The position numbers and the translations under genes are program-made. Under the pieces are notes generated by a model. That model had not been told where the DNA came from, did not search any database, and saw only the letters and a list, made by a program, of their open reading frames with translations. From an uncultured Candidatus Saccharibacteria bacterium (GTDB taxonomy: Bacteria; Patescibacteriota; Minisyncoccia; Minisyncoccales; CG1-02-41-26), in NCBI GenBank assembly GCA_964417825.1, contig CAYQJC010000002.1:1-31270 (forward strand): DNA of 31,270 nucleotides, read 5' to 3'. Shown here piece after piece: positions 1,056-20,274 of the stretch (the first letter of the stretch is position 1; each line of letters starts with the position of its first letter).

Positions 1056-1970
1056 TCAGCAATAAGGTTTTAATTCGTCTAGTCCATAGATTTCTGCATA
1101 ACTTTTCCAAACCCCAAAGCAATATTTTTTCAACTTGCAAATTTGACATTGTTTTCCATAAACTTTAGAGGCCTTATTATAATCAAAAAGATTACTTTGG
1201 TTTTTTCTATTTTGCTGAATACATTGGTATTCCATAGAATACTCTTCAAACCCTTTTAAAAAACAAAGGGGAAATCCACAGCCAGAATTCATAAAACTAA
1301 TATTTTTCTCTTGGCAATATTTCATTGCTTGAATTACATAGGGTGCGACTTTTGACATTTTCGGAACTATCCATCTATTTTCCCAAGCCAAACCAGCTGG
1401 TTGAACAAAAGAGAAAGAAAACACATTAATATTCTTCTTTCGATCTATCTTGATTACTTTTTTAAAATTCCGATGGATAAATTTTATAGTCTCTGGTACT
1501 TGCTGATAGTTTAAACTGTTGACTAAGATATTGAAGGTAATAAAAACTCCTTGATTCTGAAGATTTTTAATTCCCTGTACTGCATGTTTAAAGCTACCAG
1601 GAGTTCTAGTTAAAGCATCAAAAGTTTTTTTATCAGAAGAATAAAAAGGAACAAAAGCATGAGTCAAACCACTTCTCCGAAGGCGTTGGGTAAAATATTG
1701 ATAACAGCAAAGCATAGCATTAGTCTGAATGCCGATTCCTTCAATACCTCTCTTTTTAGCATATTTAATTAAATTTATTAAATAAGGATTAAGGGTTGGC
1801 TCACCGCCGGTGAATAACACAACCAAATCCTTTGAGTTAGAAGATAATTCATCGATTTTCTTTTTAGCGGTAATGTAATTGAAAGAATGTTCGTCTTTCT
1901 TGCCTCGGATATTACAAAATATGCAGTTCTGATTACAACTTAAATTTAATCTTAAAATAAATTCTCGCAT
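1056..1970 (-). CDS. Radical SAM protein, HxsC-like paralog
   Basis: CNQNCIFC cluster motif, FTGGEPTL, QTNA, TRTPGSF, C-terminal FPLC...CQICKLKKYCFG. Confidence 0.85.
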   Translation of the reverse strand: MREFILRLNLSCNQNCIFCNIRGKKDEHSFNYITAKKKIDELSSNSKDLVVLFTGGEPTLNPYLINLIKYAKKRGIEGIGIQTNAMLCCYQYFTQRLRRSGLTHAFVPFYSSDKKTFDALTRTPGSFKHAVQGIKNLQNQGVFITFNILVNSLNYQQVPETIKFIHRNFKKVIKIDRKKNINVFSFSFVQPAGLAWENRWIVPKMSKVAPYVIQAMKYCQEKNISFMNSGCGFPLCFLKGFEEYSMEYQCIQQNRKNQSNLFDYNKASKVYGKQCQICKLKKYCFGVWKSYAEIYGLDELKPYC

Positions 1971-1973
1971 AAT

Positions 1974-2906
1974 TTAGGGCCTAAGAATTTTTTTAATTAT
2001 TTTATTTTTATCAACAAATACGGGATAAAGTTCTTTGGCATCATAATATTTACCCATCATATATAACCCAGCACAAATATCATTCAAGAAACAGCTTTTA
2101 CAACATTCAGCTTTGGAATATCTAAAATTTTCTACTCTGACAAATCCTTTTTTATCTAAAAAATGAATGGCCATTTCCTCTCTCTTGACAATCTTTCTGG
2201 TCTCAGTAGAGCAGTGTTCAAAACCGGTCATGTAACAAAGAGGTACTCTCTCCACTCTGAAGGTCCGACCAGTTTTTTGTAAATACTCCATAGCCCGATG
2301 TAAAGATAATTCAAAATCATTTAATCGAGGAATGGTATCGGGATTTTCAGTAGCTCTATTCATTGAAGGGTCTAAATTGTTCCAAACGAAATGCCGCAAA
2401 AATGGAAATCTTTTAGTCAGCCAGATCACGTTTTTATCAAGGTGATCAGCATTATATTTGTTAATAACAGTATTAATATCTACTGTGATTCCTCCAATCT
2501 TTTTTAAGTTCTCCAGGGCTTTTTTGATGTTGGAGAAAGAGTCATCATTCTGAGTAAGGAATCCTTGGATGTCTGGTTTAATGGAATATATGGAAAGATG
2601 AAGATGATAAAGTCCTGAATCTTTGAGAAGCTTGAGATATCCAAAATCTGCTATTTTCTGCCCGTTGGTAATGACTCTGGCATGAATTTTCTTTTTTTTG
2701 CAATAAGAAAGGAATTTTGGTAATTGAGGTGATAAAGTTGGTTCTCCCCCAGTAAAAATAACTCCATCATACCCCTTTTTTATAAAATAATTGATATCAG
2801 AAAGGCCCTCTTGGAAAGAAAGGGTTTTTTTAGTGGGAGGGTTAGAACAAAATCTACATTTCTGATTACATTTCCTTGTAACTTGAATATATCCTAAAGT
2901 AGCCAT
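1974..2906 (-). CDS. Radical SAM protein, HxsC-like paralog
   Basis: CNQKCRFC, FTGGEPTL, ITNGQ, C-terminal VPLC...CKSCFLNDICAG. Confidence 0.85.
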   Translation of the reverse strand: MATLGYIQVTRKCNQKCRFCSNPPTKKTLSFQEGLSDINYFIKKGYDGVIFTGGEPTLSPQLPKFLSYCKKKKIHARVITNGQKIADFGYLKLLKDSGLYHLHLSIYSIKPDIQGFLTQNDDSFSNIKKALENLKKIGGITVDINTVINKYNADHLDKNVIWLTKRFPFLRHFVWNNLDPSMNRATENPDTIPRLNDFELSLHRAMEYLQKTGRTFRVERVPLCYMTGFEHCSTETRKIVKREEMAIHFLDKKGFVRVENFRYSKAECCKSCFLNDICAGLYMMGKYYDAKELYPVFVDKNKIIKKILRP

Positions 2907-2909
2907 ACA

Positions 2910-3887
2910 TTAATAAGCAACATTTACTCCTAAATAGAGATACACTTTATTTTCTCTATTAAATCCGTAATCAACTCCCATAGCCGCTGGGAAAAAGGAT
3001 ATTTGTTTATAAGATTCTCTTTTATATTCTGCAAGATTTTTCTCCCTTTTTGTCGAATTTTTTGATAAAAATTTCCATTTCCTTAAGAGAATTATTTATA
3101 TCTTTTATATCCTTGAAATCATATACTTTATTAATTTTGATTGATTTAAGTGAATGTTTGCTAAATCTATACAAGATGTAGAAATGAGCGCTTTTTTCTC
3201 TGTTTAATAAAAGAAAAATGTTAATAGTGCTTCCTGTTCTTTTAGTTTTATTATTTTTGAAAAATTTATTAATGAGTTCTGGATCAAGTTTTTTGTAACG
3301 ATTATATATTTTCAGATTTTCTTCAGCTGAGGAAAAATCAACAGCAATTATCACATCCGAATCTGGATAGCCAGTTTCTTTAACTACTTTTTATGGTCAA
3401 TAGAAAAAAGCCGACAAACTTCATTGATTTTCTTTACTTTTTCTTTTTTGGAATAATCAAGAGATAATTTGTCAAAATAAATCTTTAATCTATTTGGGAA
3501 TCGCCCTTTGGCTTGTTCAAAACCAAAATATAAGCGGTATCTGTCGGTTAAAGGAAAGATAGAGAAGATTTTCTCTAAATTCTCCATATCATAAATTTTG
3601 TAAAAGGCAAAAATTTTTTTAATCTTACTACAAAACTCCTTTTTCTCCCAATATTTATCTCCAGTAGAATAACTTGAAAACCTGAACGAAGAAAATGGTT
3701 CCGAAGGATTAAATGAAAATTCGAACCACATTTTTTGACTCTTTTTTTTACAATTTTTTAACAATATATCTCTTATTTCTATTAAATTATCTCCTTGTCC
3801 TTGAAAAATTTTTTCAATTAAAAAATCCCAAATCTCCTCAAACTTTTCTTTTTGTATTGGATGTTCAGGAATAATAGCTTTGGCCAT
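2910..3887 (-). pseudogene. Stand-alone paralog of the N-terminal (predicted ABBA prenyltransferase-like) domain of 5007-6953, interrupted by three -1 frameshifts
   Basis: ORFs 3384-3887 and 3022-3354 plus unannotated 2910-3030 align colinearly with the 648-aa protein N-terminus (WFEFSF..PFSSFRF, RLKIYF, DSDVIIAVDF, LKIYN, FFPAAMGVDY..YLYLG). One added base each at 3388-3392, about 3032-3041 and 2992-2996 restores a ~326-aa ORF ending at TAA 2910-2912. Confidence 0.8.
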
Positions 3888-3923: not shown

Positions 3924-4532
3924 TCATTTGTCTGTAATTGGTGTATTTATATCTACAAGATTGGTTGCTATTTCAGTTATTCTAAATTTTTTTCTAATCC
4001 AAACCTCTACAATTTCATAAGCTCCAAAAAAGCAAGAGACATAAAACAAATTACCTAATAAAGTATTTTTAAAAAATGGTAAAGCCATCGAATAACACTG
4101 GAGTAATCCAGAAAAAGTTTTAGGATACCAGGGAGTAAAACCCCAGACAGCAAGATTAGTTATAAGAAAAAATAAAACTGCACCCAAAATTGAACTTCCA
4201 CAAATTGTATAGCAATTCTTATGTTTTTTTAACCAAATTCCTAAAACACTACACAAAAGGAAGCTTCCATACACAAAAACCATTAAAATTGGCCGATAAA
4301 AACCAAGAAATATATCACTAATCAGCATAGCTAAGAGGGGAGTGGTTAAAGCTATTTTTTTTGAAAAATAAACTCCTCCAAATAAAGCAATGGCAGCAAT
4401 AGGAGTAAAATTAGGGAGATGAGGAAGCAATCTTAAGCTAACTCCTACTAAAATTAAAAGCAAGGCAATCGAAAACTCTATAATTTCACCCTTTTTAGAG
4501 AGATTAATTTTTGATATAAATGTTATTGGCAT
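3924..4532 (-). CDS. DUF6580-like putative membrane transport protein (ECF S-component-like, possibly corrinoid or metal uptake)
   Basis: Multi-TM protein with LPHLPNFTPIAAIALFGG and WY...GLLQCYSMALPFFKNTLLGNLFY motifs; adjacent to a DUF4430-like gene. The substrate is inference. Confidence 0.65.
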   Translation of the reverse strand: MPITFISKINLSKKGEIIEFSIALLLILVGVSLRLLPHLPNFTPIAAIALFGGVYFSKKIALTTPLLAMLISDIFLGFYRPILMVFVYGSFLLCSVLGIWLKKHKNCYTICGSSILGAVLFFLITNLAVWGFTPWYPKTFSGLLQCYSMALPFFKNTLLGNLFYVSCFFGAYEIVEVWIRKKFRITEIATNLVDINTPITDK

Positions 4533-4535
4533 AAA

Positions 4536-4972
4536 TTAAAATGGCGACTTTTCAAATCTAAACTCTACTTTATCTCCTGGTTTTATCTCTTTTTTATCGA
4601 CTGAGACCATTGGCATTTCATTATTAACGTAATACATCCAATACTTTCCATCTTGGCCGTTTTTTTTATTTCCAATAGCTTCAATAAGAATTCCAAAATC
4701 ATAAGTTTTTATTTTTAAGGGTATGTTTAATTCCTCCGTTTTATTTTTTAATAAATCAAAGGCAGTCATGCCCTTACTGAATTCGGCTTTAAGGTTCTTT
4801 AGGCTTCCCTCCCCATCATTAATAACCAAAAAATCACCTTCTCTTGAACATTTTCTTGAGTAATTCCAATTTCCTCTTGAGAAATAGGTTGCCCAACCTT
4901 ACTAGAAAATATTAATATTACTAAGCTGCTAATAACAACGATTATTCCTATTATAATATTTACTTTTTTCAT
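4536..4972 (-). pseudogene. DUF4430 (transcobalamin-C-terminal-like) membrane-anchored protein with one homopolymer frameshift
   Basis: ORF 4536-4829 has TAFDLL, FGILIEAIG, GKYWMYYVNNEMPMVSVD..IKPGDKVEFRF. An upstream ATG at 4970-4972 gives MKKVNIIIGIIVVISSLVILIFSS (signal anchor) and joins this frame only if the A6 run at 4828-4833 changes length (+1 or -2). Confidence 0.7.
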
Positions 4973-5006: not shown

Positions 5007-6953
5007 TCATCTTATTGGTTTAAGGTCACTTAATCCACCACATCTTCTATACCCTTCGTAAATTCCCGGGCATACTTTCTTCCGTGAGCAAAATTGGCAA
5101 CATTTCCCTTTAATCCTTTGGCCCTCGTCGGTTCTATAAAATCTGTCCTCAAAAACTTCACTCATATACAAGATATTATTTGTCTGAAGATTGTCTTTTA
5201 AATCCGGATTATCCACTAAACAATCTGACAGACCATCAAAGCCAGTTTTTATTTTTTTAGAGATAGCGCAGTGCATAGCTTCGTTTATTGCCAAAGAGGC
5301 TTCTTTAAGCGATGGGATTAATTTATTAAAATTTTTCAAAGCTTCTCCTTTTGGCTCAACCAAAGAAAATTTAATTCGATTGATTTTGAATTCTTCTACT
5401 AAATCAACGATCTTTTTTAGGTCTTTAAGATTGAGCTTCGTAACCACCACATTTACTATTAGCTCAATCTGATGGCTAGAAAGATTTTTAAGAGCTCTCA
5501 GGGTTTGATTAAAACTCCCCGGCGTTCTGGTAATAAAATCGTGCCTTTCCGGATTTGCTGAATTTAAAGTAAGATAAACATATTTTAGATTTCTTTTTAA
5601 AAGATTCTCGGAGAGTTTTCGATAACTTAATAATCTTCCATTGGTGATTAATCCCCAAGGAATCTTTCTTTGCCAGAGGGAATTAACTACTTTAGGAAAA
5701 TCTGGATGTAAAGTCGGCTCACCACCAGAAAAAAGAATCATTTCCGCTCCAATTTGTAATGCCTGATTAATTTTGTTTATTATTTGATGAAATCGAAGAG
5801 GAGGAATATTTCTCTTATCTAAAGCATGGCAAAAAAGGCAGTTATTGTTACATTGGTATTGAATTTTTATCAAGGCTTTTTTTAAATCGATTATCTTTTT
5901 CACTTTCTCACATTTTTGATAGGTAACCTTAGAACCCAAATAGAGGTATGGTCTTCTAAAATTATTTTGAGAAAAATCAATTCCTATCGCACTTGGGAAA
6001 AAAGAATATTTGTCCACAAAATTTCTTTTGAGGATTTGCCATGAATTTTTCTCTTTTTTATTTAATTTACTAAAGAATAATTTTAGCTCCTCGGTTAAAT
6101 TTCCCATACCAGTTATTTTCTGGAACTCATAAATTTTAAAAAATTTGATTGATTCCAGTTCTGAATCTTGATTAAACCGATGAAGAAGATACCAAGAACC
6201 ACTTTTCTCTTTATTTAACAAAAGCAAATTATCAATGAGATTTTTTGATGCTTTCAGGTTATTATTTTTAAAGACCCGGGAAATGAGGTTGCGGTTTAAT
6301 TTTTTATAGTGGTTATATATCTTTAGATTCTTTAGATTTTTTGGAGAAGGGAAAAAATCAATACCAATTAAATCAGAATCTGAAAAATGAGCTATCTTAG
6401 AAATTTTTTCATTATTAAACCCAAGAATCTGACACATCTTATTAATTTTTTTTATCCATTCTTGCCTTGGACAACAATGAGATAATCTCCAAAAATAAAT
6501 TTTTAATCTAGCCGGAAATTTTCCCTTAGATTGAACGAATCCAAAGGATACCTGATATTTATCCAGAGGAAAAAGTGAAAGAATTTTTTCAAGCTTATTA
6601 AAATTATCAATTTGAAATAAATCAAAAATCTTTTTTATTTTGCTGACGAACTCCTCTTTCTCCCAATATTTATCATCACCATCGATTCTGGAACATGCAA
6701 ATCTAAAGGAGGAAAAAGGATTTGGGAGAATAAATGAGAATTCAAACCATATCTGCTTTGGGAAGATGTTATCACCCTCATCGAGAAAGATATTTCTAAT
6801 TTTTTTTAGTTTGCCTAAGCTTTCTAAATGAGCTTTTCTAATTAAAAATTCCCAAGCCTCTTCCAGAACTTCTTTCTCTACTCCTTGCTTAAATTTAACT
6901 GGTTTAATAGCTTCTAATCCTCTGTAATTTTTAAAATTTTTTATAATTTTCAT
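5007..6953 (-). CDS. Two-domain protein: predicted ABBA/DMATS-type prenyltransferase-like N-terminal domain fused to an HxsC-like radical SAM domain
   Basis: The C-terminal ~290 aa carry CNNNCLFC, FSGGEPTL, ITNGR, TRTPGSF and CQFCSRKKVCPG (radical SAM, confident). The N-terminal ~345 aa show five beta-hairpin-like motifs with FEFSF..FRF, RLKIYF and LKIY (prenyltransferase call is inference). Confidence 0.7.
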   Translation of the reverse strand: MKIIKNFKNYRGLEAIKPVKFKQGVEKEVLEEAWEFLIRKAHLESLGKLKKIRNIFLDEGDNIFPKQIWFEFSFILPNPFSSFRFACSRIDGDDKYWEKEEFVSKIKKIFDLFQIDNFNKLEKILSLFPLDKYQVSFGFVQSKGKFPARLKIYFWRLSHCCPRQEWIKKINKMCQILGFNNEKISKIAHFSDSDLIGIDFFPSPKNLKNLKIYNHYKKLNRNLISRVFKNNNLKASKNLIDNLLLLNKEKSGSWYLLHRFNQDSELESIKFFKIYEFQKITGMGNLTEELKLFFSKLNKKEKNSWQILKRNFVDKYSFFPSAIGIDFSQNNFRRPYLYLGSKVTYQKCEKVKKIIDLKKALIKIQYQCNNNCLFCHALDKRNIPPLRFHQIINKINQALQIGAEMILFSGGEPTLHPDFPKVVNSLWQRKIPWGLITNGRLLSYRKLSENLLKRNLKYVYLTLNSANPERHDFITRTPGSFNQTLRALKNLSSHQIELIVNVVVTKLNLKDLKKIVDLVEEFKINRIKFSLVEPKGEALKNFNKLIPSLKEASLAINEAMHCAISKKIKTGFDGLSDCLVDNPDLKDNLQTNNILYMSEVFEDRFYRTDEGQRIKGKCCQFCSRKKVCPGIYEGYRRCGGLSDLKPIR

Positions 6954-8368
6954 TTTTTAATCGTTTTAATCGGCTTTAAAATCTTATAGCCGAAATTGCG
7001 AATATAGTTTATATGAACACCCGGACAGCTTTTAAAATATTTACATTTCCGACATCTGATACTTTTGGTATAGTACTTTTTTAAGATGAACCAATCGGTG
7101 TATTTATAAATATCAATAAAACCTCCTCTATAGATTTCAGAAATATCACTATCCTTTTCTGTAACAATCTCGCCTTTGGGATACAGACATATGGGAATGT
7201 TTTCAATCTTAAACCCTGGGAGTTTAACTTTACTAAAAAAACTTCTTAAATTTATATCATTTTTTTTAGATTGAGATAAAAGGTGGTGATTTTCTTGAAA
7301 AAAAACAATTTTATCTCGAAATCTATAAAGTTTTTTTAAATTCCTTAAAATCCAATCTTTGGTTCTTTTATTAATGGCAATCTCAAAACATCCTTTTTGA
7401 GCAAAATTAATTTTTTTTATATCATTCTCATTTTTTATTAAAGTCACAGATTTCTTTGAAAAATCTCTTTTTGTCTCTGGATGTTTAACCAAGAGCAACT
7501 GGAAACAGAAATCTTTTAAAAAACACCATTTACATCTTTCCCCCCAACAAGGCATAAGTTTATCCTCTCTTAAAAATTTGTTAAACAAACCTTCTCTTCC
7601 CTTCACCTCATCGTATAATTTCACCGGATCCTGGATTAAATCCTCAGACCCCTCAAGATAGGGAGGAGGAAATCGGTTGGTCCAAAGATGAACTCTTGAA
7701 TCATGGGAAATCTTAAAAGCTCTTTTAAGATAAGGTAAAGCGTCTTCAATTTTGTAAAAAACTTTCTTTTTGTTTTTCCAAGCATCGCCAAAAGGAATGA
7801 TTTGTAAAAGATCGAATTCATAAACTCCAAGACCCATAAAAAATTTTATAATTTCAGGAAGTCGTCGATAATTAATTTTATTTATAACAATATCTATATT
7901 CACAATCAGCCCCTTGCAACTTAAAGCATTGATTAATCCCGTCATCGCTTGAGAGAAAGAACCCTTAACTTGACTTTGAACTTCATATAATTTTTCAGTA
8001 TGACCATGAATTGAAAAAGTAATTTCATCTACCCCCCTTTCAATGGCTTTTTTAAGAAATCCTTTGTAGCTGAACATTCGGCCATTGGTAATTATCTGGA
8101 CTTTTTTGTAACCAAGTTCTTTAGTAAATTCTACTACTTCTAGAAATTGTGGATGTAAAGTCGGCTCTCCTCCCGAAAGCACCGCTCTTTCAGCTCCGTT
8201 CTTAATTCCCTCCTTTAACTTTTCTTTTATTATCTTTAAGGGAACGAAGGTTCCATCCTGAGAGGGTCTATCCAAACAAAAAATGCACCGGTTATTACAG
8301 CACCGAGTTAACCTAACCCACTGACGTCTTTCCTGGGAAGCTTTTTCTTTCTCCAATAATCTGTTCAT
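6950..8368 (-). CDS. Radical SAM protein, HxsC-like, with an extra C-terminal Cys module
   Basis: CNNRCIFC, LSGGEPTL, ITNGR; two C-terminal Cys sets, CKWCFLKDFC and IPICL...CRKCKYFKSCPG. Confidence 0.85.
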   Translation of the reverse strand: MNRLLEKEKASQERRQWVRLTRCCNNRCIFCLDRPSQDGTFVPLKIIKEKLKEGIKNGAERAVLSGGEPTLHPQFLEVVEFTKELGYKKVQIITNGRMFSYKGFLKKAIERGVDEITFSIHGHTEKLYEVQSQVKGSFSQAMTGLINALSCKGLIVNIDIVINKINYRRLPEIIKFFMGLGVYEFDLLQIIPFGDAWKNKKKVFYKIEDALPYLKRAFKISHDSRVHLWTNRFPPPYLEGSEDLIQDPVKLYDEVKGREGLFNKFLREDKLMPCWGERCKWCFLKDFCFQLLLVKHPETKRDFSKKSVTLIKNENDIKKINFAQKGCFEIAINKRTKDWILRNLKKLYRFRDKIVFFQENHHLLSQSKKNDINLRSFFSKVKLPGFKIENIPICLYPKGEIVTEKDSDISEIYRGGFIDIYKYTDWFILKKYYTKSIRCRKCKYFKSCPGVHINYIRNFGYKILKPIKTIKK

Positions 8369-8380
8369 GATAAGATAAAA

Positions 8381-9271
8381 TTATTTAACCGGCTTAAACT
8401 CCTCCCAGCCAAAATGTTCTGGATATTCTCGCCAAGGTCCTTCGCAAATTTTAAAATATTTACACCTCTTGCAACTTTCCGCTTTGGTTTTACCTTCCTC
8501 TTTTCTCGCTTTAGTGAAATTAATTATTTGATCTCGCTCAAATACTGTAGTATCTGGTATAATTTTCTCAGCAATATAATCTTCATAGCCTTTCATAAAA
8601 CAGAGGGGAATGGCTTCAGTCATTACTCTCTTGCCGGCTTTTCGTCCAATATCTAACCCTTCTTTCACGAAGGGTTCAACTAAGCTTTTTCTTGGAACAA
8701 TTGAATCAAAATTTTCTTCTGCCCTGCCCAAAGCATGAGGGAAGGCAAATTGAAACTGATCTACTCCAAGTTTCACCAGAAGCTTTGCAATCTCGGGAAG
8801 ATGTCGATAGTTAGACTTAGTAATAACAGTATTGGTTACTACCGCAACTCCCAGTAATTTGAGATTTTTTATCCCTCTCACTGTTTGGGAAAAACTTCCT
8901 TTAACGGTCGTTAAATAATCATGAAGTTGAGGAATATGCCCGTGTAAAGCAGGTGAAAATTCGTTGGCTCCAGCTAAAATTGTTTTTTTGCAAAATTCTT
9001 TGTAAGCGAACATCCTGCCATTAGTTTGGATTTGGATAATCTTAAATTTTAGATTACTAGCATATCTTACTAATTCTAAAAAATCTTTTCTTATTGTCGG
9101 TTCTCCACCAGTGAAGACTACTCCCTGACAATTTTCTTTTTTTGCCTTCCTTAGGGCTTCTTTAACTTCCTGGGTAGTTTTATCGGGATAAATCTCTCTT
9201 TTGTTACCTTGAACGCAAAAACGACATCTATTATTACAAGAAAACCCCACTTTTATATCTGCTCTTTTCAT
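8381..9271 (-). CDS. Radical SAM protein, HxsC-like paralog
   Basis: CNNRCRFC, FTGGEPTI, QTNGR, IPLC...CKRCKYFKICEG; first gene after precursor 9406-9660. Confidence 0.85.
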   Translation of the reverse strand: MKRADIKVGFSCNNRCRFCVQGNKREIYPDKTTQEVKEALRKAKKENCQGVVFTGGEPTIRKDFLELVRYASNLKFKIIQIQTNGRMFAYKEFCKKTILAGANEFSPALHGHIPQLHDYLTTVKGSFSQTVRGIKNLKLLGVAVVTNTVITKSNYRHLPEIAKLLVKLGVDQFQFAFPHALGRAEENFDSIVPRKSLVEPFVKEGLDIGRKAGKRVMTEAIPLCFMKGYEDYIAEKIIPDTTVFERDQIINFTKARKEEGKTKAESCKRCKYFKICEGPWREYPEHFGWEEFKPVK

Positions 9272-9405: not shown

Positions 9406-9660
9406 TTACCAATTTCCATGGGAACCATGGGAACCATGGGAACCATGAGAACCATGGGAAGTATGAGAAGCATGACGTCCTCGAGCTCCTGAGTTGTGAA
9501 AATAATTGCTGTGTCCAGCGTGAGTAATAGTTGCATCTAAAGCGATCCCAATTACAGCTAAAGCAGCTCCAATTTTAGCAATACTTTTTTTACTTATTTT
9601 CCCCTCTTCGGAGTTAAGAAAAGTTCTAAGATTTTTTTTGATTTTTGGAATTTTCTTCAT
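9406..9660 (-). CDS. hxsA: His-Xaa-Ser repeat precursor peptide 1 (HxsA-like)
   Basis: 84 aa: basic leader, FLNSEEGKISKK, hydrophobic stretch, THA-G, then HNS...HAS HTS HGS HGS HGS HGS HGN W; located in a cluster with HxsB and HxsD. Confidence 0.85.
   Translation of the reverse strand: MKKIPKIKKNLRTFLNSEEGKISKKSIAKIGAALAVIGIALDATITHAGHSNYFHNSGARGRHASHTSHGSHGSHGSHGSHGNW
9416..9460. repeat. Five tandem 9-bp units (ccatgggaa x3, ccatgagaa, ccatgggaa) encoding Ser-His-Gly repeats
   Basis: Read directly from the sequence; in frame within hxsA1. Confidence 0.95.
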
Positions 9661-10708: not shown

Positions 10709-11857
10709 TTAACGGAAAATAGCTAAAATAATGCTCAAAATGGAATTTTGGGTAACTAAAGTAATAATAAACCCCAAAAATAAAAAAGGAGAAAATGGGA
10801 AAGTACGATAAATTTTTAATTTCTTTTCCGGTTCCTGACCCCAGATCTTCCTAATGAAATTTACCTGATCCTCAGTTAGTCCCTCAGAGAAAAAAGACCC
10901 TATTTTAGCTTCTATTTCTTTTTTTGTTTTTAATTGCATCTTTTTCAAGAGTTCTCTTAAAGTTGTTTGAGAAAGAATCATCTGAGGTCGGAGCTCTTTT
11001 AATTTTATTTCTCTGGTTTCTTTCTTTTCAATGTAAAAATCTAATATCTGACGAAGCAAGTTTATAATGACCATAAAAAATAAAGCAGTTTTAAGAATAT
11101 TAAAAAGAACTCCTAATTGAGAAGTGCTCACTAAGTACCCACTGTAAACCAAAGAGCCAATTCCTAATCCTAAAACAACTTTTTTCTTTTTACCTAAAAT
11201 TCTAAAAATAACTCTATAAGAGAAAAAGATAACAAAGAAAATTAAAACTGGATTTGAAATAACAGAGCTGAGCTGCTGAGAAACCTGGGCCCTTGCTAAA
11301 TGTAAAATAATAAATATCGAAATAAACCCTACAAAAGTACCGGCTATCTTCTTGACTTTCGGTTTAATCTCAATAAATAGTTTTTTCAAAGAACTAAAAT
11401 TAATTTTGGTCTTTTTTATCTTTAAAATTTCTTTTATCCCTATTACTGAACCTTGAATCACCAAAAGAATAAGTAAAGGAAAAAAGGTATTAACTAAGAG
11501 ACAAAAAGAAGGAAAATAAGGTAGATAACTTTTTGAATAAAATTTTAAAGGCAAAAGCAAAGCATATAAAGTGAAAAGTTTAGCATCACCAGCTGACCAG
11601 AGATTAAAATACCAAATCCCATAACCTACCAAAAAGGCAATTCCTCCATTTAATAAAAGGTTTAGTAAATAGCGATCATTCTCCGGCTCATGAAGATAAA
11701 AAAGATTGTAAAGAAATAGTCCGAGATAAAGAAAAATCGCCCACATTAAACCAAAAAGAATCCACTTATTTTTAATTTTCCCATACCTAATATCAGTGAA
11801 ACAACAAATACCACCAACAATAAAAAGAGGGGTTAAGAATAAAAAATCAATAATCAT
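10709..11857 (-). CDS. A24-family prepilin/preflagellin-type aspartic peptidase with an extended membrane region
   Basis: Catalytic-type motifs TDIRYGKIKN and SAGDAKL, many TM segments, KELRPQMIL and C-terminal FPFSPFLFLG. Confidence 0.8.
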   Translation of the reverse strand: MIIDFLFLTPLFIVGGICCFTDIRYGKIKNKWILFGLMWAIFLYLGLFLYNLFYLHEPENDRYLLNLLLNGGIAFLVGYGIWYFNLWSAGDAKLFTLYALLLPLKFYSKSYLPYFPSFCLLVNTFFPLLILLVIQGSVIGIKEILKIKKTKINFSSLKKLFIEIKPKVKKIAGTFVGFISIFIILHLARAQVSQQLSSVISNPVLIFFVIFFSYRVIFRILGKKKKVVLGLGIGSLVYSGYLVSTSQLGVLFNILKTALFFMVIINLLRQILDFYIEKKETREIKLKELRPQMILSQTTLRELLKKMQLKTKKEIEAKIGSFFSEGLTEDQVNFIRKIWGQEPEKKLKIYRTFPFSPFLFLGFIITLVTQNSILSIILAIFR

Positions 11858-12558: not shown

Positions 12559-13356
12559 TTAATCCCTTCCCCAAACCTTGCGATGACAATATTTTGTTTT
12601 AAACTTCTCAAATTTTTCTTGACAAAAAGAAGTTGGGTTTTCCCTAAAGAATAACTGGCAATACATTTTAATATGAGGGTGTTCTATTTGGTTACATTTT
12701 GATTCTTCATTATCAATTAGGGCTTTGTAATACCGAGCTTGACTCTGGCAATACATTCTTTTTTCTTGAGAGTTATAAAAATTACAATATTTTTCATCCC
12801 CAGATAGCATAGCTAAACACCAGGCTTTAAAATCTTCATCTCCCCCTTCACTGCAGCGATAAAAGTCCCTTTCTAAGATTGCCAGACAAAATTTCTGGCA
12901 CCAAGCTTCCAGAGCTGGGTCTCCAGAATTACTAATTGCTTTTTTACACGCTTCAATTTCTCCTGCTTCACATTTTTTGTTTTTAATTATTCTTCCCAAG
13001 AAATTGGGAAAGAGATAAAATAATCTCTGACAATTTTTAGCAATATCAGGAGAAATATTTTTTAATAAGTTGCACTGAAAGGGATTTTGCTTTATAGCTG
13101 CTTGACATTCTAGGTATTGGATTAAATTTTCCATTGACTCTTGGCTATAGTAAATTACCCCTTCTCGAATCACCTGATTAAAATCAAACCTCTCTAGACA
13201 CTCTTTTTCTTTTTTCTCCAAAACCACCTGAAGTTCGGGTGAAATAGTTGGAGTGACTTCTTCTTTTTCTTTTGGTCGTCGAAGAACAATTAATGTAATG
13301 TTTAATATTACACCAATTGCTATTAGAGAGAGTATAATAATCAGTTTTTTGTTCAT
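12559..13356 (-). CDS. Cys-rich, N-terminally membrane-anchored protein (family member 3)
   Basis: TM LIIILSLIAIGVILNITLIVL, 16 Cys, KEKECLERFDFN, YLECQAA, C-terminal KTKYC. Confidence 0.8.
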   Translation of the reverse strand: MNKKLIIILSLIAIGVILNITLIVLRRPKEKEEVTPTISPELQVVLEKKEKECLERFDFNQVIREGVIYYSQESMENLIQYLECQAAIKQNPFQCNLLKNISPDIAKNCQRLFYLFPNFLGRIIKNKKCEAGEIEACKKAISNSGDPALEAWCQKFCLAILERDFYRCSEGGDEDFKAWCLAMLSGDEKYCNFYNSQEKRMYCQSQARYYKALIDNEESKCNQIEHPHIKMYCQLFFRENPTSFCQEKFEKFKTKYCHRKVWGRD

Positions 13357-14294: not shown

Positions 14295-14843
14295 TCAATT
14301 TTTAGAGCCAGAGGGCTTTTTATTTGATTTTTTCTTTTTCTCTTCTTCTTCCAACTTTTCAAGCGCCTTTAAATAATGGCGGCTTAATTCAAAAGCTGGA
14401 GGTGAAAATTTTTGGATTTGTTCCATCCGTTTTTGGAAAATTTTCAAGATTCTAATGGTATCAATAACACTAAGATGATAGTCGATAAATCTCCGAATGG
14501 CAAATATTGTCTCTCGTATCTCTATTTGTCTACCAACTTCCTCATTCCAAGCAGAAGCAAGAATAATAAATTCATTAACTAAATCTTTAAGAATCGGGGT
14601 GAGGGGTTGCTCAATGACAATTCTTAATAAAAGATTTAATATTTGTTTTATTTGGCTTTTTTCTTCTTCATTAACCCTAACTTTTCTTTTTTTTCGTTTT
14701 TCTTTCAATTGTCCGCCCATTAGCTCAACAGTTTTCTTGACTAAATCTAATTTCTCTTGGGTGAGAACGGAGTAAATCTGAATATGGCCCAAAATCTCCT
14801 TTAGTTTTTTAATATTTGGTTGATAAATAATTTTATTCTTCAT
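14295..14843 (-). CDS. Hypothetical helical protein coupled to the radical SAM pair
   Basis: 182 aa; start overlaps the upstream radical SAM stop by 11 nt; FSPPAFELSRHYL segment; no recognised family. Confidence 0.7.
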   Translation of the reverse strand: MKNKIIYQPNIKKLKEILGHIQIYSVLTQEKLDLVKKTVELMGGQLKEKRKKRKVRVNEEEKSQIKQILNLLLRIVIEQPLTPILKDLVNEFIILASAWNEEVGRQIEIRETIFAIRRFIDYHLSVIDTIRILKIFQKRMEQIQKFSPPAFELSRHYLKALEKLEEEEKKKKSNKKPSGSKN

Positions 14844-16161
14844 TAATAAATTCTTCTAGTAGATTTAGAGAAACCTTTTTATCTTTATTTAATTTCTCAA
14901 AAATTCTATCATAGATTCCTAATCTCTTATATGTTTTTATCATAGTTAAAATTTTAGCATGTTCAAGTTGGCAAACGGTGGGAATAGGTGAAAATAAATC
15001 TCCGGTTGTTTCGTATTGAGCCCCGAGACATCCCCCAGAACACAAATACTTTAAAGGGCAACTTTCACATATCGGAGCGGTTTTAATATCGAAGGTAATT
15101 GAGCCTATAAGTAATTCTGGGTTCTTACTTTCTATGCCGATAATTCTGCCATTTTTAACAATAAACCTTCCCAATTCAAATGGGGAATAAGATGTCCTAT
15201 GGCAAGGAATAAATGTTAAATCGCCTAATCTTAAATGAAAAGTGGATTGAAGAGAACAGCCTATTCCCCTACCAACAGTTGTTAAGGGAGAATGTAAAAT
15301 GTTATAACCTTTCTTATTGAATACGAAGTCGAGGAAATTGCCTTTGTTTTTTTGGCAAGGAAAATAGTAAGTCCATTCAATCAGAAACTCTATAAATCTC
15401 ATAAACTCTTTAATCTGTTTTTTTGACCACTCAACATTTCTGACTTCTAGTAAATAAATATTAAAAAAGGGAATGTTAAATTTTTTAAAGTTTTTTTGAA
15501 ACCAAAGAAAATTTTTCTGCCAATTCTCAATAAGTACAGAATAAATCATTGGATGGAATCCATAACAATACTTTTTATTAAAAGCGAAAACTCTCTCATA
15601 ATATTCATTATTCCGTTTTTCTTTTCCTGTCTTAAATGGTCTGTTTTTCTCACAATATTTTCCATCAAAGGAAGCTGATAAAATAATAGGCATTTCTAAT
15701 TCTCTTGAAGCTTGGATAAGTTCCTCAACCCGCTTAGTTTTTTCTGGCGAAAGCAGAAAGGTGTAATTGGTAGGAATAACAATGCTCTTTGGCCGATTTT
15801 TTACTGATTTAAACTTATTCAAAATTAGCTCTAAAGCCTTAAATCCTAGTTCCTGCGAGAAAGGTTCACCCCCAAAAATCTCAATTTTTGGATAATATCC
15901 CTTCCGAATAAGCCAGTCTAAAAACAGCGAGAGATTTCTTAAAAGAATTTTTGGGCTTTGAATTTCTATTGGATAAAGTTCTTCACCATAATTAGCCACA
16001 TAACAATATTTGCATTTTAAATTACAAGAAGTATTTAAGAAAATCTCTAACTGTTCAAAGTTAACCAAATCTTCCTTCCAACCCTTGAAAAAAGTGTGGT
16101 TTAAAAATGAATTTACTAATTTGTTATTTTCTTTTTGATAAAGTTTTATTTTTTCTGCCAT
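14833..16161 (-). CDS. Radical SAM/SPASM peptide maturase (non-HxsB/C type)
   Basis: CNLKCKYC, FGGEPF, SPASM-type GIGC..PCHRT..CESCPLKYLCSGGC..VC. Confidence 0.85.
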   Translation of the reverse strand: MAEKIKLYQKENNKLVNSFLNHTFFKGWKEDLVNFEQLEIFLNTSCNLKCKYCYVANYGEELYPIEIQSPKILLRNLSLFLDWLIRKGYYPKIEIFGGEPFSQELGFKALELILNKFKSVKNRPKSIVIPTNYTFLLSPEKTKRVEELIQASRELEMPIILSASFDGKYCEKNRPFKTGKEKRNNEYYERVFAFNKKYCYGFHPMIYSVLIENWQKNFLWFQKNFKKFNIPFFNIYLLEVRNVEWSKKQIKEFMRFIEFLIEWTYYFPCQKNKGNFLDFVFNKKGYNILHSPLTTVGRGIGCSLQSTFHLRLGDLTFIPCHRTSYSPFELGRFIVKNGRIIGIESKNPELLIGSITFDIKTAPICESCPLKYLCSGGCLGAQYETTGDLFSPIPTVCQLEHAKILTMIKTYKRLGIYDRIFEKLNKDKKVSLNLLEEFINEE

Positions 16162-17519
16162 TCTATATATTCTTTTAAAATTTCTTCAAAAGCACCGTTA
16201 GCAAAAAGTCTTATCATTGAGATGGGAGAAAAATGAATAACTCCAGTATTTAAGACATTTTCTGTAGGACATCCAAGGGCTAGATTTAAAAAAATAGCAA
16301 ATAAAATTGCCAAATCTTCATCTAAATAGCATTCGCTTGCTTGACCAACTAAAACAAGCTCCTGAAGCATTGCTAATGTGTAGCTGATTTTTAATCTAGT
16401 AAAATCGTGGTAGTTTCGCCCTACATAAAAAAGTCTTATTTTTTCTTCTAGTTTATTTATATCTACTATAAACTTATTTTTAATTAAATCTAAATTTCCT
16501 TTTTCAAACAAACTTACATCCCAATTTTTTATTTCTTCATTTTTTAAAATACTCTCAATGTACTCTTGATTATTTAAAAAGAAAGAGCGATGGCAAATAT
16601 GCAAATCATTGTCTATTCCCACTCCAAAATTACTATCTCCTCCGCTACAGGTGAACATATAAGGTTTGATAAATAACTCATTCTGATAGTCAAATAATCT
16701 CTTTAGGCGATAAACATAGGTATTTAAAGAACTTTTGACATACTTCCAATGTTGATTTTTTTTATTTTGCTTTCCTAAAATCCTTAAATTTCTAAAGAAA
16801 ATTGCTAATTCTTTCCCGTCAACTGAGGTATATTTCCCAGGGCAAACTAAAGTTGGAGTACAACTAGTTAGCAAACTTACTTTTTGATTTTTGTTCTTTC
16901 TTTTAAATTCTTGGAAAATTTTCTCAAAGAAATCGAAATATTTTCTTAATCTTTCCTTTTTCTTATTCAAGATCTTAATATTGTCAATTGATAAAGTTGG
17001 CTTTAGCGAAAATCTAACATTTAGATTGGTTAAGTTTATGGTATTTAATTTGCTGATTAAATAAAAAAAATTTTCAGTTATTTTTTTTGTTGCTCCAGGA
17101 CCTCTATTGATATCGGTAATAAAATCAGGACCATCTATGGAAATTTGGACTTTAAGATTAATTTTTTTCCTGGTTTTGGTTAAGGCTTTGATAAAATTCA
17201 AAATAATCTCCGGGTTGGTCAAGAGATTGGTCGAAAAAGAGATTCCCACCAGCTTAGGGAAAGTTTTGAAAAGAAAAGATAAAGATTTTTGAATTTTTTT
17301 TAGGGTTAATGTCGGTTCGGTCCCCCAGAATCCTAAATATTGAAGATTCTGACCGTAAGCTCTTTTTAAGGTATCGAGATACTCTCTCTGGTCAAGGTTA
17401 GTTATTATCTTATCTTGGAGAAATCCCATCTGGGAAGTTTTTGGGATATAACAATACTTACAGTTTAAAGGACAGGTAGCTGAAGAGAATAACTCTGTTG
17501 AAACCATTCTTTTGTTCAT
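16146..17519 (-). CDS. Radical SAM peptide maturase with a reduced SPASM/Twitch-like tail (non-HxsB/C type)
   Basis: CPLNCKYC, WGTEPTL, SIDGP, FTCSGG..HICHRS..LGCP; first gene after precursor 2. Confidence 0.85.
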   Translation of the reverse strand: MNKRMVSTELFSSATCPLNCKYCYIPKTSQMGFLQDKIITNLDQREYLDTLKRAYGQNLQYLGFWGTEPTLTLKKIQKSLSFLFKTFPKLVGISFSTNLLTNPEIILNFIKALTKTRKKINLKVQISIDGPDFITDINRGPGATKKITENFFYLISKLNTINLTNLNVRFSLKPTLSIDNIKILNKKKERLRKYFDFFEKIFQEFKRKNKNQKVSLLTSCTPTLVCPGKYTSVDGKELAIFFRNLRILGKQNKKNQHWKYVKSSLNTYVYRLKRLFDYQNELFIKPYMFTCSGGDSNFGVGIDNDLHICHRSFFLNNQEYIESILKNEEIKNWDVSLFEKGNLDLIKNKFIVDINKLEEKIRLFYVGRNYHDFTRLKISYTLAMLQELVLVGQASECYLDEDLAILFAIFLNLALGCPTENVLNTGVIHFSPISMIRLFANGAFEEILKEYIEWQKK

Positions 17520-17560: not shown

Positions 17561-17995
17561 TTAAGCAAGCAGATTGAGATTTGTATAATCGTCAGTATAA
17601 TTGGTACTAAGAGCAACTGTTTTTTCAGCAGACTTATCACTCAGACAGTGTCCACCTAAATCATCGCTGAAATATATTGAATTATCGGCAGACTTATCGG
17701 CAGAACATCCACCATTATCGTGAGACCCATGAGAACCATGGGAGCCATGGGAATTGTGGGAACTGTGATTACTGTGAGAACCGTGGTCTCCTCTGGCTCC
17801 TGAGTTGTGGAAGGCGCTTGAGTGGGGGGTGGAACTTGAATGGCCAGCCCAGATATTCTTGGCTCCAAAAATAGTAGCCAAGAGAGTTAAACCTAGTCCA
17901 AGCTTGAGGGCATTCTTTTTACTAATCTTTCCTTCTTCTGAAGAGAGGAAAGATTTAAGATTCTTTTTGATTTTGGGGAGGTTTTTCTTTTTCAT
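17561..17995 (-). CDS. hxsA: His-Xaa-Ser repeat precursor peptide 2 with an acidic Cys-containing C-terminal extension
   Basis: Same leader as hxsA1 (PKIKKNLKSFLSSEEGKISKK), IWA-G, HSS..HSS..HNS GARGD HGS HSN HSS HNS HGS HGS HGS HDN, then GGCSADKSAD...GGHCLSDKSAE. Confidence 0.85.
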   Translation of the reverse strand: MKKKNLPKIKKNLKSFLSSEEGKISKKNALKLGLGLTLLATIFGAKNIWAGHSSSTPHSSAFHNSGARGDHGSHSNHSSHNSHGSHGSHGSHDNGGCSADKSADNSIYFSDDLGGHCLSDKSAEKTVALSTNYTDDYTNLNLLA

Positions 17996-18010: not shown

Positions 18011-18841
18011 TTAAAAACCAGCCCATTGGTGACAATAATTATCTCTAATTAATTTTAACCTATTTTCGCAAAGTATTTTCGGATTAGAAATAAAATATAA
18101 GTTACAAATTGTTTTAAGAGAAGGGTTTTTTATTGTCTCACAATTCTCTTCCTTTTTACTACCAAGGGCGAAGAAATATTGCCAAATATCAAGGCATTTA
18201 TCTTTAGTTGACTGGTCTAAAAAATTATCACAATATTTTTTCTCTTTAGATATTACAACCTGACACAAAAAATAGAGAGGCTTTCCTTTTTCAGTCAAAG
18301 GGAAAAGCTGGGAACAGATATTAGTATCTTCTTGAAGATAGGCTCGACAGAAATTTCTGCAATGTTCCTCAGTAATCTTTTCATTAAGGGAATCCTCCTC
18401 CTTTCTCCCCACAAACTCTACACAACTCTGAATGGCTCGATTATTACACTCGCCTTTTTTCTCTACTTCTTCAAAAAAATTATAAGTATAAAAACACCTC
18501 TCACATCCTAGAAAATATTTTGAACCATATAATTGCTCACAAACTTTTATCTCCCTTTCTTGCACTGCTTTACAGGTAATATATTCTGCAAATAAATTGT
18601 TTAATTTATTGCTTAATTCAGTTGGTAAAAGGTGCTTTTTTAACTCCCGGTTTATTACCTCGTTTAAATTAAAATTATTATAACAATATTCTTTTCTCTT
18701 CTCAACCACCTCTAAGGGGACCTCGAAAGAAATCTTTTCTTGTTTTTCCTTCCTTTCTTTTATCATCAGAAAGTACACTATTAAAATCGAACTACCAATC
18801 AGTATTATGAGAATAATTGTAGTTTTTATCGTTTTTTTCAT
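18011..18841 (-). CDS. Cys-rich, N-terminally membrane-anchored protein (family member 4)
   Basis: Likely start is the second Met (18841; the ORF track start 18865 overlaps hxsB). TM IILIILIGSSILIVYFL, 17 Cys, C-terminal RDNYC; ends 15 nt before hxsA2. Confidence 0.8.
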   Translation of the reverse strand: MKKTIKTTIILIILIGSSILIVYFLMIKERKEKQEKISFEVPLEVVEKRKEYCYNNFNLNEVINRELKKHLLPTELSNKLNNLFAEYITCKAVQEREIKVCEQLYGSKYFLGCERCFYTYNFFEEVEKKGECNNRAIQSCVEFVGRKEEDSLNEKITEEHCRNFCRAYLQEDTNICSQLFPLTEKGKPLYFLCQVVISKEKKYCDNFLDQSTKDKCLDIWQYFFALGSKKEENCETIKNPSLKTICNLYFISNPKILCENRLKLIRDNYCHQWAGF

Positions 18842-18846
18842 ATTAT

Positions 18847-20274
18847 CTATCCAGCCCCTAACCACTTATCAAATACCTTTTTTATCTTTTTGTTTTGTAG
18901 TCTCTGAAAGAGGTAATCTAACATTCCTTTGTTTAATCTACACCTATCGTTATTGGGCAAAGAAGCAAAAAGGTTGCCATAAAGAGCATAATTTAGAACT
19001 GGACAGACCCCGCAGTAGGGTTTGTAACAGCAATAGTCACAAGGAAGGTTATCAAGACAAGAAGCTATACAAGCTGCTTTCACAGCATCATGAGAAACTA
19101 TTTCTTGATAACTATTTCTCTTCACATTGCCAATCTTAAATACATCATCTTCCAACATCCTTCCCTCATCGCAAGTAAAAACATCTCCATTGTAATTATA
19201 GGAGAGCTGGCCAATGCCTGCTCCACAGGGAGAACGCAGATCCAGATAACCTGGGTCTTGGTCAGTCAAAATTTTACGAAGCATAACCACCGCTCCCCTC
19301 TCAGAAATTTTTTTCTTTTTAAAATTTAATTCAATGATATAATCCATTGCTTCTCTCCAGAATCTTAAGAATTCCTCAGTTGAGTAACCAATTTTATCTT
19401 TAAGTTTCCCTGAAAGTCCTAAATAACTGAGGGGTCTTAAATGAATAGTTGAAAAACCCCACTTTAGGTATTCATCGATAATTTCTTTGGGGTATTTCAA
19501 TGAATAGCGAGATATAGTTAAAAGAGCATTAACTCGGTTTAATTTTGGATGTTCTTTTCGATAATTATTTATTCTCTTAACCCAGTAGACAGTTTTTTCA
19601 TAGCTATTTCCTCCGATAAGAATTCTGTTTTTGTTGTGAAGTTTTTCTGGGCCGTCTAAAGAAGTACAAAGCCCTACTCTGTTTTTAAAAAGAAATTTTA
19701 ATTTTTTCTCATCCAAAAGTGAAAAATTAGAAACTAGGGTAATCCATAAATCCTTTTCTCTCTTTTTATTTTTTTCTCTAGCATACTCAACAATAAACTT
19801 AACAGTTGGCCAATTAACTAAAGGCTCTCCTCCCTGAAATTCAATAGTTATATTTTTGTTTGGACTACAAAATATCGTATCTACCACCTTGCGAGCAGTT
19901 GGAATATCCATATCATAGCCCTTCTCTTCTAAACTCCGCGAGCTGACCTGACAATAGATGCATTTATGATTACATCTTAGAGTGACCACGACAATGTGTA
20001 AGCTTGGCCCTTGGGCTAAGAAGGCATTTCGAGAACGATATTTTTCTATTAAATTATCAAAGTCTAAGTAGTCTCTGATAAATTCTCTAGATTCCATTTT
20101 CTTGTAGAGTTCTGTCTTTTTGTCTAAGTTTCCTTCCAAAAATCTTATAAACGATTTCTCAGTTAAAAAAATATACTCACCAATGTCATTGGTAAGTAAA
20201 TATTTCCTCCCAAATTTTTTGAACCGGCAAAATCCTATTTTATCTAAGTTAATTTTATCTAAATCAATGTTCAT
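18847..20274 (-). CDS. hxsB: His-Xaa-Ser system radical SAM/SPASM maturase HxsB
   Basis: N-terminal KYLLTNDIGEYIFL region, PSLHIVVVTLRCNHKCIYCQ, IEFQGGEPL, SPCGAGIGQLSYNYNGDVFTCDEGRM, CDYCCYKPYCGVCP; HxS peptide and HxsD neighbours. Confidence 0.85.
   Translation of the reverse strand: MNIDLDKINLDKIGFCRFKKFGRKYLLTNDIGEYIFLTEKSFIRFLEGNLDKKTELYKKMESREFIRDYLDFDNLIEKYRSRNAFLAQGPSLHIVVVTLRCNHKCIYCQVSSRSLEEKGYDMDIPTARKVVDTIFCSPNKNITIEFQGGEPLVNWPTVKFIVEYAREKNKKREKDLWITLVSNFSLLDEKKLKFLFKNRVGLCTSLDGPEKLHNKNRILIGGNSYEKTVYWVKRINNYRKEHPKLNRVNALLTISRYSLKYPKEIIDEYLKWGFSTIHLRPLSYLGLSGKLKDKIGYSTEEFLRFWREAMDYIIELNFKKKKISERGAVVMLRKILTDQDPGYLDLRSPCGAGIGQLSYNYNGDVFTCDEGRMLEDDVFKIGNVKRNSYQEIVSHDAVKAACIASCLDNLPCDYCCYKPYCGVCPVLNYALYGNLFASLPNNDRCRLNKGMLDYLFQRLQNKKIKKVFDKWLGAG

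Follow-up and report, generated by a model that had tools for sequence, protein, structure and literature searches.

A radical S-adenosylmethionine (SAM) enzyme that begins with a domain matching no curated protein family raises the question of what this additional domain is and what it could do to the peptides of its gene cluster. The question arises in a His-Xaa-Ser (Hxs) locus on a 31,270-nt stretch of DNA from an uncultured Candidatus Saccharibacteria bacterium (contig CAYQJC010000002.1 of assembly GCA_964417825.1), the whole of which we refer to as the window. The gene at 5007–6953 encodes a fusion protein whose N-terminal part almost certainly has the fold of the ABBA prenyltransferases (PTs), as judged from a structural model, and whose C-terminal part is a radical SAM domain. 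In the best-supported reading, which we hold with moderate confidence, the N-terminal barrel would transfer a prenyl group to an HxsA4 peptide as an accessory tailoring enzyme of HxsA4-type, radical SAM-rich clusters. The gene and its parts are as follows.

5007–6953, minus strand: fusion open reading frame (ORF), a single unbroken frame of 648 aa (ORF translation)
5919–6953, minus strand: predicted PT-barrel (ABBA-fold) domain, fusion residues 1–345 (AlphaFold2 (AF2) model, Foldseek, conservation)
5010–5918, minus strand: radical SAM domain, fusion residues 346–648, HxsC/HxsC4-like (PF04055, NCBIfam)
5829–5852, minus strand: Cx3Cx2C motif CNNNCLFC, residues 368–375, predicted to bind the radical SAM [4Fe-4S] cluster (regular expression on the translation)

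Fold and family of residues 1–345

Residues 1–345 had no match in Pfam, in NCBIfam or, using phmmer, in the PDB sequence set, and a word-indexed homologue search with the single sequence returned just a fragment of the same protein. The AF2 model built from a 21-sequence family alignment had a predicted local distance difference test score (pLDDT) of 85.6 and a predicted template modeling (TM) score of 0.85, and it contained ten helices and ten strands arranged as (alpha-alpha-beta-beta)x5, with two helices preceding every strand pair. The pairs are b1 (67–75, QIWFEFSFI) and b2 (82–89, SFRFACSR), b3 (134–142, QVSFGFVQS) and b4 (149–155, RLKIYFW), b5 (193–200, SDLIGIDF) and b6 (208–216, KNLKIYNHY), b7 (252–260, GSWYLLHRF) and b8 (266–275, LESIKFFKIY), and b9 (319–328, FPSAIGIDFS) and b10 (333–344, RRPYLYLGSKVT). 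The initial annotation, made from the letters of the DNA and their translations, had pointed to five hairpin-like motifs in this region; they coincide with the ten modeled strands, taken as five pairs.

Comparison of the model with the PDB using Foldseek gave 95 matches at E ≤ 1e-3, and the best 50 of the 95 were all ABBA prenyltransferases, with probability 1.00 and TM-scores of 0.45–0.65. Matches included 5-DMATS (E 2.6e-8), PirF, IptA, PagF, DMATS1, CloQ, LimF, FunA, and NphB, as well as CymD (TM 0.65), TleC, FgaPT2, KgpF, PatF, AmbP1, and NotF. An earlier AF2 model from four window-derived sequences was poor (pLDDT 44), and with it Foldseek already ranked ABBA enzymes first, at nonsignificant E-values. 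In the AF2 model and the Foldseek matches, the window domain has the ten-strand barrel of five alpha-alpha-beta-beta repeats that characterizes the ABBA superfamily, and the PT-barrel proposed by the annotation is borne out, with its reference enzymes FgaPT2, LimF, and KgpF among the matches. On the strength of this model, we regard the fold assignment of residues 1–345 as close to certain.

The family to which the domain belongs is rare, with about 30 representatives, and unannotated, and it has so far been seen in metagenomes of the Candidate Phyla Radiation (CPR) and Elusimicrobia. An exhaustive HMMER profile search over 1.84 billion protein cluster representatives returned 35 proteins at E ≤ 1e-3, about 28 of which are stand-alone proteins of 299–341 aa that are 19–29% identical to the window domain; a profile scan of genome contigs with a tighter family alignment found 3 genomes, and a homologue search using a subset of the alignment returned 3 proteins. 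In the alignment of 28 homologues, the motif columns are the most conserved, which at 19–29% identity is more than chance. Ten residues are invariant in the family (S73, R84, E98, K105, G138, K151, K211, Y213, K270, and P320), and about 15 more are nearly so, including D/E71, Q134, R149, Y153, D199, R259, K273, Y275, and Y338. Position 71 is Glu in the window copy and Asp in the rest of the family. The conserved motifs of the window domain read R149-x-K151-x-Y153, K211-x-Y213, and K273-x-Y275, and the recurrence of a K-I-Y type motif at 151–153, 211–213, and 273–275, about 60 aa apart, is as expected for an internal repeat. The invariant and nearly invariant strand residues are mostly Arg, Lys, Tyr, Asp, and Glu, spaced i,i+2 and alternating with hydrophobic residues, the pattern expected of residues that face the lumen of a barrel wrapped in helices; these side chains would accordingly be expected to point inward.

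The sequence-level link to known prenyltransferases is far weaker than the structural one. Weak matches to PF11991 (Trp_DMAT) were returned for six of 29 family members (best E 0.0017), and weak matches to TIGR03429 for two (best E 0.0053); the window domain matched neither, and no member reached any curated family threshold. Pfam returned no other prenyltransferase family for the window domain and 28 homologues, which leaves DMATS as the only curated families with any sequence signal to this family. Neither cyanobactin F-type nor CloQ/NphB-type membership was found by sequence; the likeness to those enzymes is structural, from Foldseek. The family profile matched NotF in the PDB weakly (E 1.3), on the K-x-Y hairpins of NotF.

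We also compared the family with DMATS enzymes by profile alignment, using the FgaPT2 sequence (verified as identical to PDB 3i4x over 459 aa) and a five-sequence fungal DMATS alignment. hhalign aligned the family with this alignment over 302 columns with a P of 0.0025 and a probability of 12%, and the reversed-template control gave a P of 0.28. The alignment pairs family D71 (E71 in the window) with FgaPT2 E89, R84 with R100, K151/Y153 with K187/Y189, K211/Y213 with K259/Y261, and K270 and residue 272 (Tyr in the family, Phe in the window) with Q343/Y345; Ser/Thr136 lies opposite K174, and the last hairpin is misaligned. Against FgaPT2 alone there was a mere 40-column local match, and the alignment with NphB alone was out of register and uninformative. 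The initial label "DMATS-type" thus holds for the register of the FgaPT2 E89/R100 and K-x-Y positions in this weak profile alignment, and it fails at the thresholds of the DMATS families. Judged by sequence, the domain is a new orphan family within the ABBA fold that belongs to neither the DMATS, the cyanobactin-F nor the CloQ/NphB group.

The radical SAM fusion and its Hxs locus

The C-terminal half, with its radical SAM domain at residues 355–648, matches PF04055 (Radical_SAM) over fusion residues 363–519 (E 4.4e-23, 82.7 bits against a cut-off of 29.5) and ends in a CCxxCx6C Cys cluster, read from the translation. Its top NCBIfam matches were HxsC4 (NF038332, 109 bits) and HxsC (TIGR03977, 99 bits), below the respective cut-offs of 500 and 268 bits, and its identity with the cluster's remaining radical SAM proteins is 25–28%. 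By these comparisons, it appears to be a radical SAM enzyme of the HxsC-like group rather than an equivalog of HxsC or HxsC4. The frame runs continuously through a linker of about 10 aa between the two domains, and the ATG of the fusion overlaps the stop codon of the upstream radical SAM gene at 6950–8368 (ATGA). Gene calls in three independent assemblies, of which two come from ENA and one from JGI, yield the identical 648-aa protein; the fusion is therefore not a single-assembly artifact. Both the PT-radical SAM fusion and the Hxs context that had been claimed for it are real, given the PF04055 and NCBIfam matches and the three assemblies.

The combination that identifies a His-Xaa-Ser system, an HxsA-type substrate together with HxsB and HxsD, is present in the window, in a locus bordered by housekeeping genes (ClpP, trigger factor, H+-PPase, and PNPase). 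Apart from the fusion and its paralogous module, its genes are the following.

20506–20958, minus strand: HxsD (TIGR03976, 64 bits against a cut-off of 50)
18847–20274, minus strand: HxsB radical SAM/SPASM maturase (TIGR03978, 514 bits against a cut-off of 370)
17561–17995, minus strand: second HxS-repeat precursor, 144 aa (HisXaaSer_A3 55.6 bits and A4 51.1 bits, both just under cut-off)
16146–17519, minus strand: radical SAM/SPASM gene (family-model scan)
14833–16161, minus strand: radical SAM/SPASM gene (family-model scan)
10709–11857, minus strand: polytopic membrane protein; weak match to prepilin peptidase, A24 (PF01478, E 4e-5, below cut-off)
9406–9660, minus strand: HxsA4-type precursor, 84 aa, ending ...SHGSHGSHGSHGSHGNW (NF038313 HisXaaSer_A4, 61.2 bits against a cut-off of 55)
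8381–9271, minus strand: HxsC4-like radical SAM protein, 296 aa (HxsC4, 185 bits)
6950–8368, minus strand: HxsC4-like radical SAM protein, 472 aa, upstream of the fusion (Pfam, NCBIfam)
1056–1970, minus strand: HxsC4-like radical SAM protein, 304 aa (Pfam, NCBIfam)

The window holds at least eight radical SAM genes, and five genes or domains are HxsC4-like (8381–9271, 6950–8368, 5010–5918, 1974–2906, and 1056–1970). Wherever called genes extend far enough (related loci L001/L002, L003–L005, and L013, and the window), HxsD and HxsB lie upstream of the radical SAM array.

The association of the PT-like gene with Hxs clusters extends beyond the window. In all nine contexts of homologues (an Elusimicrobiota metagenome-assembled genome (MAG), a Roizmanbacteria contig, an Azambacteria MAG, two more Elusimicrobia MAGs, and four other metagenome contigs), radical SAM genes lie on either side of the PT-like gene, within Hxs clusters or next to them, and the stop and start codons of the PT-like gene often overlap with those of the radical SAM neighbors. 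The neighboring radical SAM gene at 8381–9271 is 65–66% identical to its L003 and L006 orthologues; in related clusters, its orthologue sits just upstream of the PT gene, to which it is fused in P0019, P0056, L016, and L021. Used as bait, this gene retrieved 80 metagenome loci at 56–70% identity, six of which carry a PT-like ORF, two of the six (L016 and L021) as radical SAM-PT fusions. With a PT in just six of 80 clusters, the protein is an optional addition, which fits a tailoring enzyme better than an obligatory scaffold. The same count led us to reject the idea that the PT protein belongs to the core of HxsC4-type clusters.

Most members of the PT family are stand-alone proteins. Fusions to the upstream neighbor occur in P0019 (618 aa, with the radical SAM domain N-terminal and the PT domain C-terminal), in P0045 with its full-length relative P0056, and in L016 and L021; fusion to the downstream neighbor was seen in the window only. 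Fusions to the upstream and to the downstream radical SAM neighbor indicate tight functional coupling. Neighbor fusion is also common among the radical SAM genes of these operons themselves: in related clusters, runs of up to ten or more consecutive radical SAM genes are seen, and double radical SAM fusion proteins of 866 and 910 aa occur there (L006 11843–14443 and the P0019 contig).

The window contains a second, unfused version of the same gene pair.

2913–3887, minus strand: second PT-barrel gene copy, stand-alone, in three pieces (3384–3887, 3022–3354, and 2913–2999; frameshifts, PT-family hidden Markov model matches on the pieces)
1974–2906, minus strand: separate radical SAM gene (PF04055, E 4.5e-23)

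The pieces of the PT copy are 45–52% identical to the PT domain of the fusion, and they are separated by two frameshifts of 1 nt each, both at A5 runs (near 3384 and 3040). Other assemblies (L009 and L010) share both breaks and have one further indel. The gene is thus probably a decaying stand-alone copy. The initial annotation had described its motifs as conserved in a paralogue at 2910–3887; the conservation stands, the coordinates are properly 2913–3887, and the ORF is not intact. The radical SAM gene begins 4 nt past the stop of the broken copy and is 57% identical to L003 17942–18877.

The two PT/radical SAM modules are separated by genes for a DUF6580 membrane protein (E 4.5e-53) and for a DUF4430 protein, together at 3924–4829 (minus strand); both genes are absent from the related Hxs clusters examined. 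The DUF4430 ORF (4536–4829, minus strand) and a 57-aa ORF at 4799–4972 with a signal- or transmembrane-like segment look like one gene interrupted by a 1-nt indel in a T6 run, and gene calls around 4536–4972 vary between assemblies. With the two A5 runs of the PT copy, this makes three homopolymer frameshifts in about 2 kb.

Several other genes of the locus recur in related clusters. The membrane protein at 10709–11857 has orthologues in L001, L003, L006, and L008, an A24 gene is also present in L012, and in L003, L006, L008, and L012 the radical SAM array is followed downstream by the A24-type gene. The membrane protein is a candidate for the peptidase that removes the HxsA4 leader. Between HxsD and HxsB, a 68-aa ORF (20264–20470, minus strand) is conserved in L003 and L006 at 39–41% identity, and L013 has a 66-aa ORF at the same position. 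The 68-aa product ends ...IIKDEFSNYVLA..., resembling the LLNDYxLRE motif that names the HxsD family, and it may be a short HxsD paralogue. The proteins encoded at 18011–18865 and 12559–13356 (minus strand) are paralogous (26% identical), have no Pfam match and no Cx3Cx2C in the first 140 residues of either, and are related to a protein of about 307 aa that follows HxsA4 in L003 and L006; one of the pair occupies the canonical HxsC position.

Proposed prenyl transfer to HxsA4 and the alternatives

How could the barrel act on an HxsA4 peptide? Based on the conserved residues, we infer that its lumen would bind an allylic prenyl diphosphate, dimethylallyl diphosphate (DMAPP) or geranyl diphosphate (GPP), via R84, R149/K151, K211, R259, and K270/K273, and that Y153, Y213, Y275, and Y338 would shield the resulting carbocation. 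E71 (Asp elsewhere in the family) would orient or deprotonate the acceptor, as proposed by analogy with FgaPT2 E89. The acceptor would be a side chain of HxsA4 (9406–9660), with the C-terminal Trp or the His/Ser of the HGS repeats as candidates, and fusion to the HxsC4-like radical SAM domain would couple prenylation physically to a radical SAM step on the same peptide.

The precursors found in PT-containing related loci end ...HGSHG(Q/N)W. An HG(Q/N)W ending was present in nine of nine independent PT loci with a precursor and in three of 12 PT-less loci (hypergeometric P ~7e-4, a value that ignores phylogeny and includes some PT-less loci that are short). We rejected the conserved C-terminal Trp as a marker of PT clusters, given that three PT-less loci share ...HG(Q/N)W and others have a near-terminal Trp (GSW, YSW, or GGWC). 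Since the Trp is not PT-specific, the acceptor is not assignable from precursor comparison, and His, Ser, Tyr, and Arg are possible acceptors besides Trp.

The precursors themselves are diverse. The two in the window (84 and 144 aa) nearly share the leader MKK..PKIKKNL..FL.SEEGKISKK, followed by a hydrophobic helix, and the 144-aa precursor has a Cys-containing acidic tail after its repeats rather than a GNW end. In one assembly of the same population (L011 276–533), HxsA4 ends ...SHAIW instead of ...SHGNW (GGAAAT -> GCGATT). In PT-less clusters (L015–L094), the precursor ends vary and include HGSW, HYSW, SRGGWC, QIGGW, and Cys-rich tails. This variety suggests that HxsA4-like peptides fall into subclasses with different C-terminal chemistry.

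Several observations weigh against prenyl transfer to HxsA4. The sequence link to known prenyltransferases is weak, with an hhalign probability of 12% and no match of the window domain to PF11991 or TIGR03429. The window copy departs from its family at three near-invariant positions (K69W, W141Q, and E155W), and the C-terminal Trp also occurs in PT-less clusters. Isoprenoid-precursor genes were not found within the window, and CPR genomes are metabolically reduced, so that donor supply is in doubt. Finally, PatF, a PT barrel of a cluster for a ribosomally made, post-translationally modified peptide (RiPP), is catalytically dead.

The PatF precedent leads to one alternative, in which the barrel would be an inactive PT-fold module that serves the radical SAM enzymes as a peptide-binding scaffold, replacing a RiPP recognition element (RRE)/PqqD-type domain. 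Such a role would suit the occurrence of radical SAM fusions in both orders, the lack of any reported RRE-type Pfam domain in HxsC4-like proteins, the presence of PatF among the structural matches, and the three departures of the window copy. It sits poorly with the retention, at 19–29% identity, of ten invariant residues and some 15 near-invariant ones, for the most part Arg, Lys, Tyr, Asp, and Glu located on strands, including those aligned with FgaPT2 E89, R100, K187/Y189, and K259/Y261, and an essential scaffold would not be missing from 74 of the 80 related clusters. We consider this alternative unlikely.

A second alternative accepts an active ABBA transferase and changes its partners: the substrate would not be HxsA4, or the cargo would not be an ordinary prenyl group, with a small aromatic compound, a free amino acid, or an unusual diphosphate donor involved instead. 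The structural matches do include enzymes that act on free Trp/His or small molecules (5-DMATS, IptA, CymD, FunA, CloQ, and NphB), and the precursor comparison did not point to one acceptor. The genomic setting argues for a peptide of the cluster: the gene is radical SAM-flanked in nine of nine contexts, in or beside Hxs operons and often with overlapping codons; it has been fused repeatedly to Hxs radical SAM enzymes; and no small-molecule biosynthetic genes were seen nearby. We think it improbable that the enzyme serves another pathway or another cargo.

That assembly or gene calling joined two genes through a lost stop codon is very hard to credit, even with homopolymer frameshifts nearby (two in the PT paralogue and one in the DUF4430 gene) and an unfused paralogous pair, given the identical ORF in three independent assemblies, the unbroken frame through the linker, and the recurrence of PT-domain/radical SAM fusions in other loci.

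Relation to known systems and significance

Prenylation of an HxsA4 peptide would set the window enzyme apart from its structural relatives. The DMATS-type enzymes (5-DMATS SCO7467 6zs0, IptA 7w8u, CymD 6os5, TleC 4yzl, and FgaPT2 3i4x) share the ten-stranded barrel (E-values of 2.6e-8 to 1e-5 and TM-scores as high as 0.65 in Foldseek), and in the weak profile alignment the acidic residue of strand 1, the Arg of strand 2, and the K-x-Y strands of the window family pair with FgaPT2 E89, R100, K187/Y189, and K259/Y261. Its many basic residues suggest that diphosphate binding may be metal-independent, as in DMATS. Identity to DMATS is 9–14%, however, and scores stay below the curated thresholds; the family is shorter (~315 aa versus 350–460 aa), carries R-x-K-x-Y on strand 4 rather than strand 6, and has Ser/Thr at the position of FgaPT2 K174. 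Known DMATS enzymes use free Trp or small indole substrates and are not known from peptide operons with radical SAM genes. CloQ/NphB (Orf2) enzymes are PT barrels of ~300–325 aa (Foldseek E ~1e-6) with small-molecule phenolic substrates, unlike the peptide proposed here.

The closer functional analogy that we propose is with the cyanobactin F enzymes (PagF 5tu6, PirF 6pgm, LimF 7vmw, KgpF 8ye0, and the inactive PatF 4bg2). These have the same fold at ~300 aa, with target-normalized TM-scores of 0.59–0.67, and they are optional RiPP tailoring enzymes that act on peptide Tyr, His, Trp, Ser/Thr, and Arg. There is no detectable sequence similarity between the two groups. The window family comes from CPR bacteria and Elusimicrobia rather than cyanobacteria and is fused to radical SAM domains, and the RiPPs it accompanies are not cyanobactins but HxS-repeat peptides encoded together with many radical SAM enzymes. 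Lanthipeptide-cluster prenyltransferases set a precedent for RiPP prenylation outside cyanobactins (PMC12715784, JACS 2025); they belong to a different RiPP class from HxS.

The canonical Hxs relative is the four-gene HXS system (HxsA/B/C/D), which provides broad antiphage defense by blocking phage DNA entry (PMC13128918, Nat Commun 2026). Maturation of HxsA is the work of HxsB and HxsC and involves N-terminal processing together with a shift of +8 Da at an SHRSS motif; the mature protein works in the periplasm, where a peptidoglycan-binding domain anchors it (PMC13128918). Of these systems, 99.7% are in Pseudomonadota and >99.8% have just four genes; no prenyltransferase is mentioned (PMC13128918). 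The window resembles them in having HxsB, HxsD, and an HxS-repeat substrate above curated cut-offs and in relying on radical SAM maturation. It differs in its 84-aa HxsA4-type precursor without a peptidoglycan-binding domain, in its at least eight radical SAM genes, and in its PT-barrel protein. Antiphage function is known only for the four-gene proteobacterial system. Our full-text literature searches found no paper linking ABBA or other prenyltransferases with Hxs or radical SAM systems and none describing such a fusion.

Nearly all known ABBA peptide prenyltransferases are from cyanobactin clusters or, more recently, from lanthipeptide clusters. If active, the enzyme described here would represent a separate, sequence-orphan ABBA branch with no Pfam or NCBIfam model, in a new RiPP-like context, in which as many as ten radical SAM enzymes process HxS-repeat peptides, and it would covalently join carbocation chemistry to radical chemistry. 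These findings suggest an undescribed lipid-adding tailoring step in the Hxs system. A more speculative extension, doubtful at present, is that a prenyl lipid on a radical SAM-modified HxS peptide would tether the peptide to the cytoplasmic membrane or the surface of the cell in CPR bacteria and Elusimicrobia, replacing the peptidoglycan-binding domain of HxsA, so that a lipidated gatekeeper would guard against phage DNA entry and a new peptide-prenyltransferase family would be coupled to radical SAM chemistry. A lipid-tailored version of Hxs in ultra-small bacteria would give an assayable handle on the fate and location of these peptides, and its enzymes could serve as peptide-lipidation catalysts.

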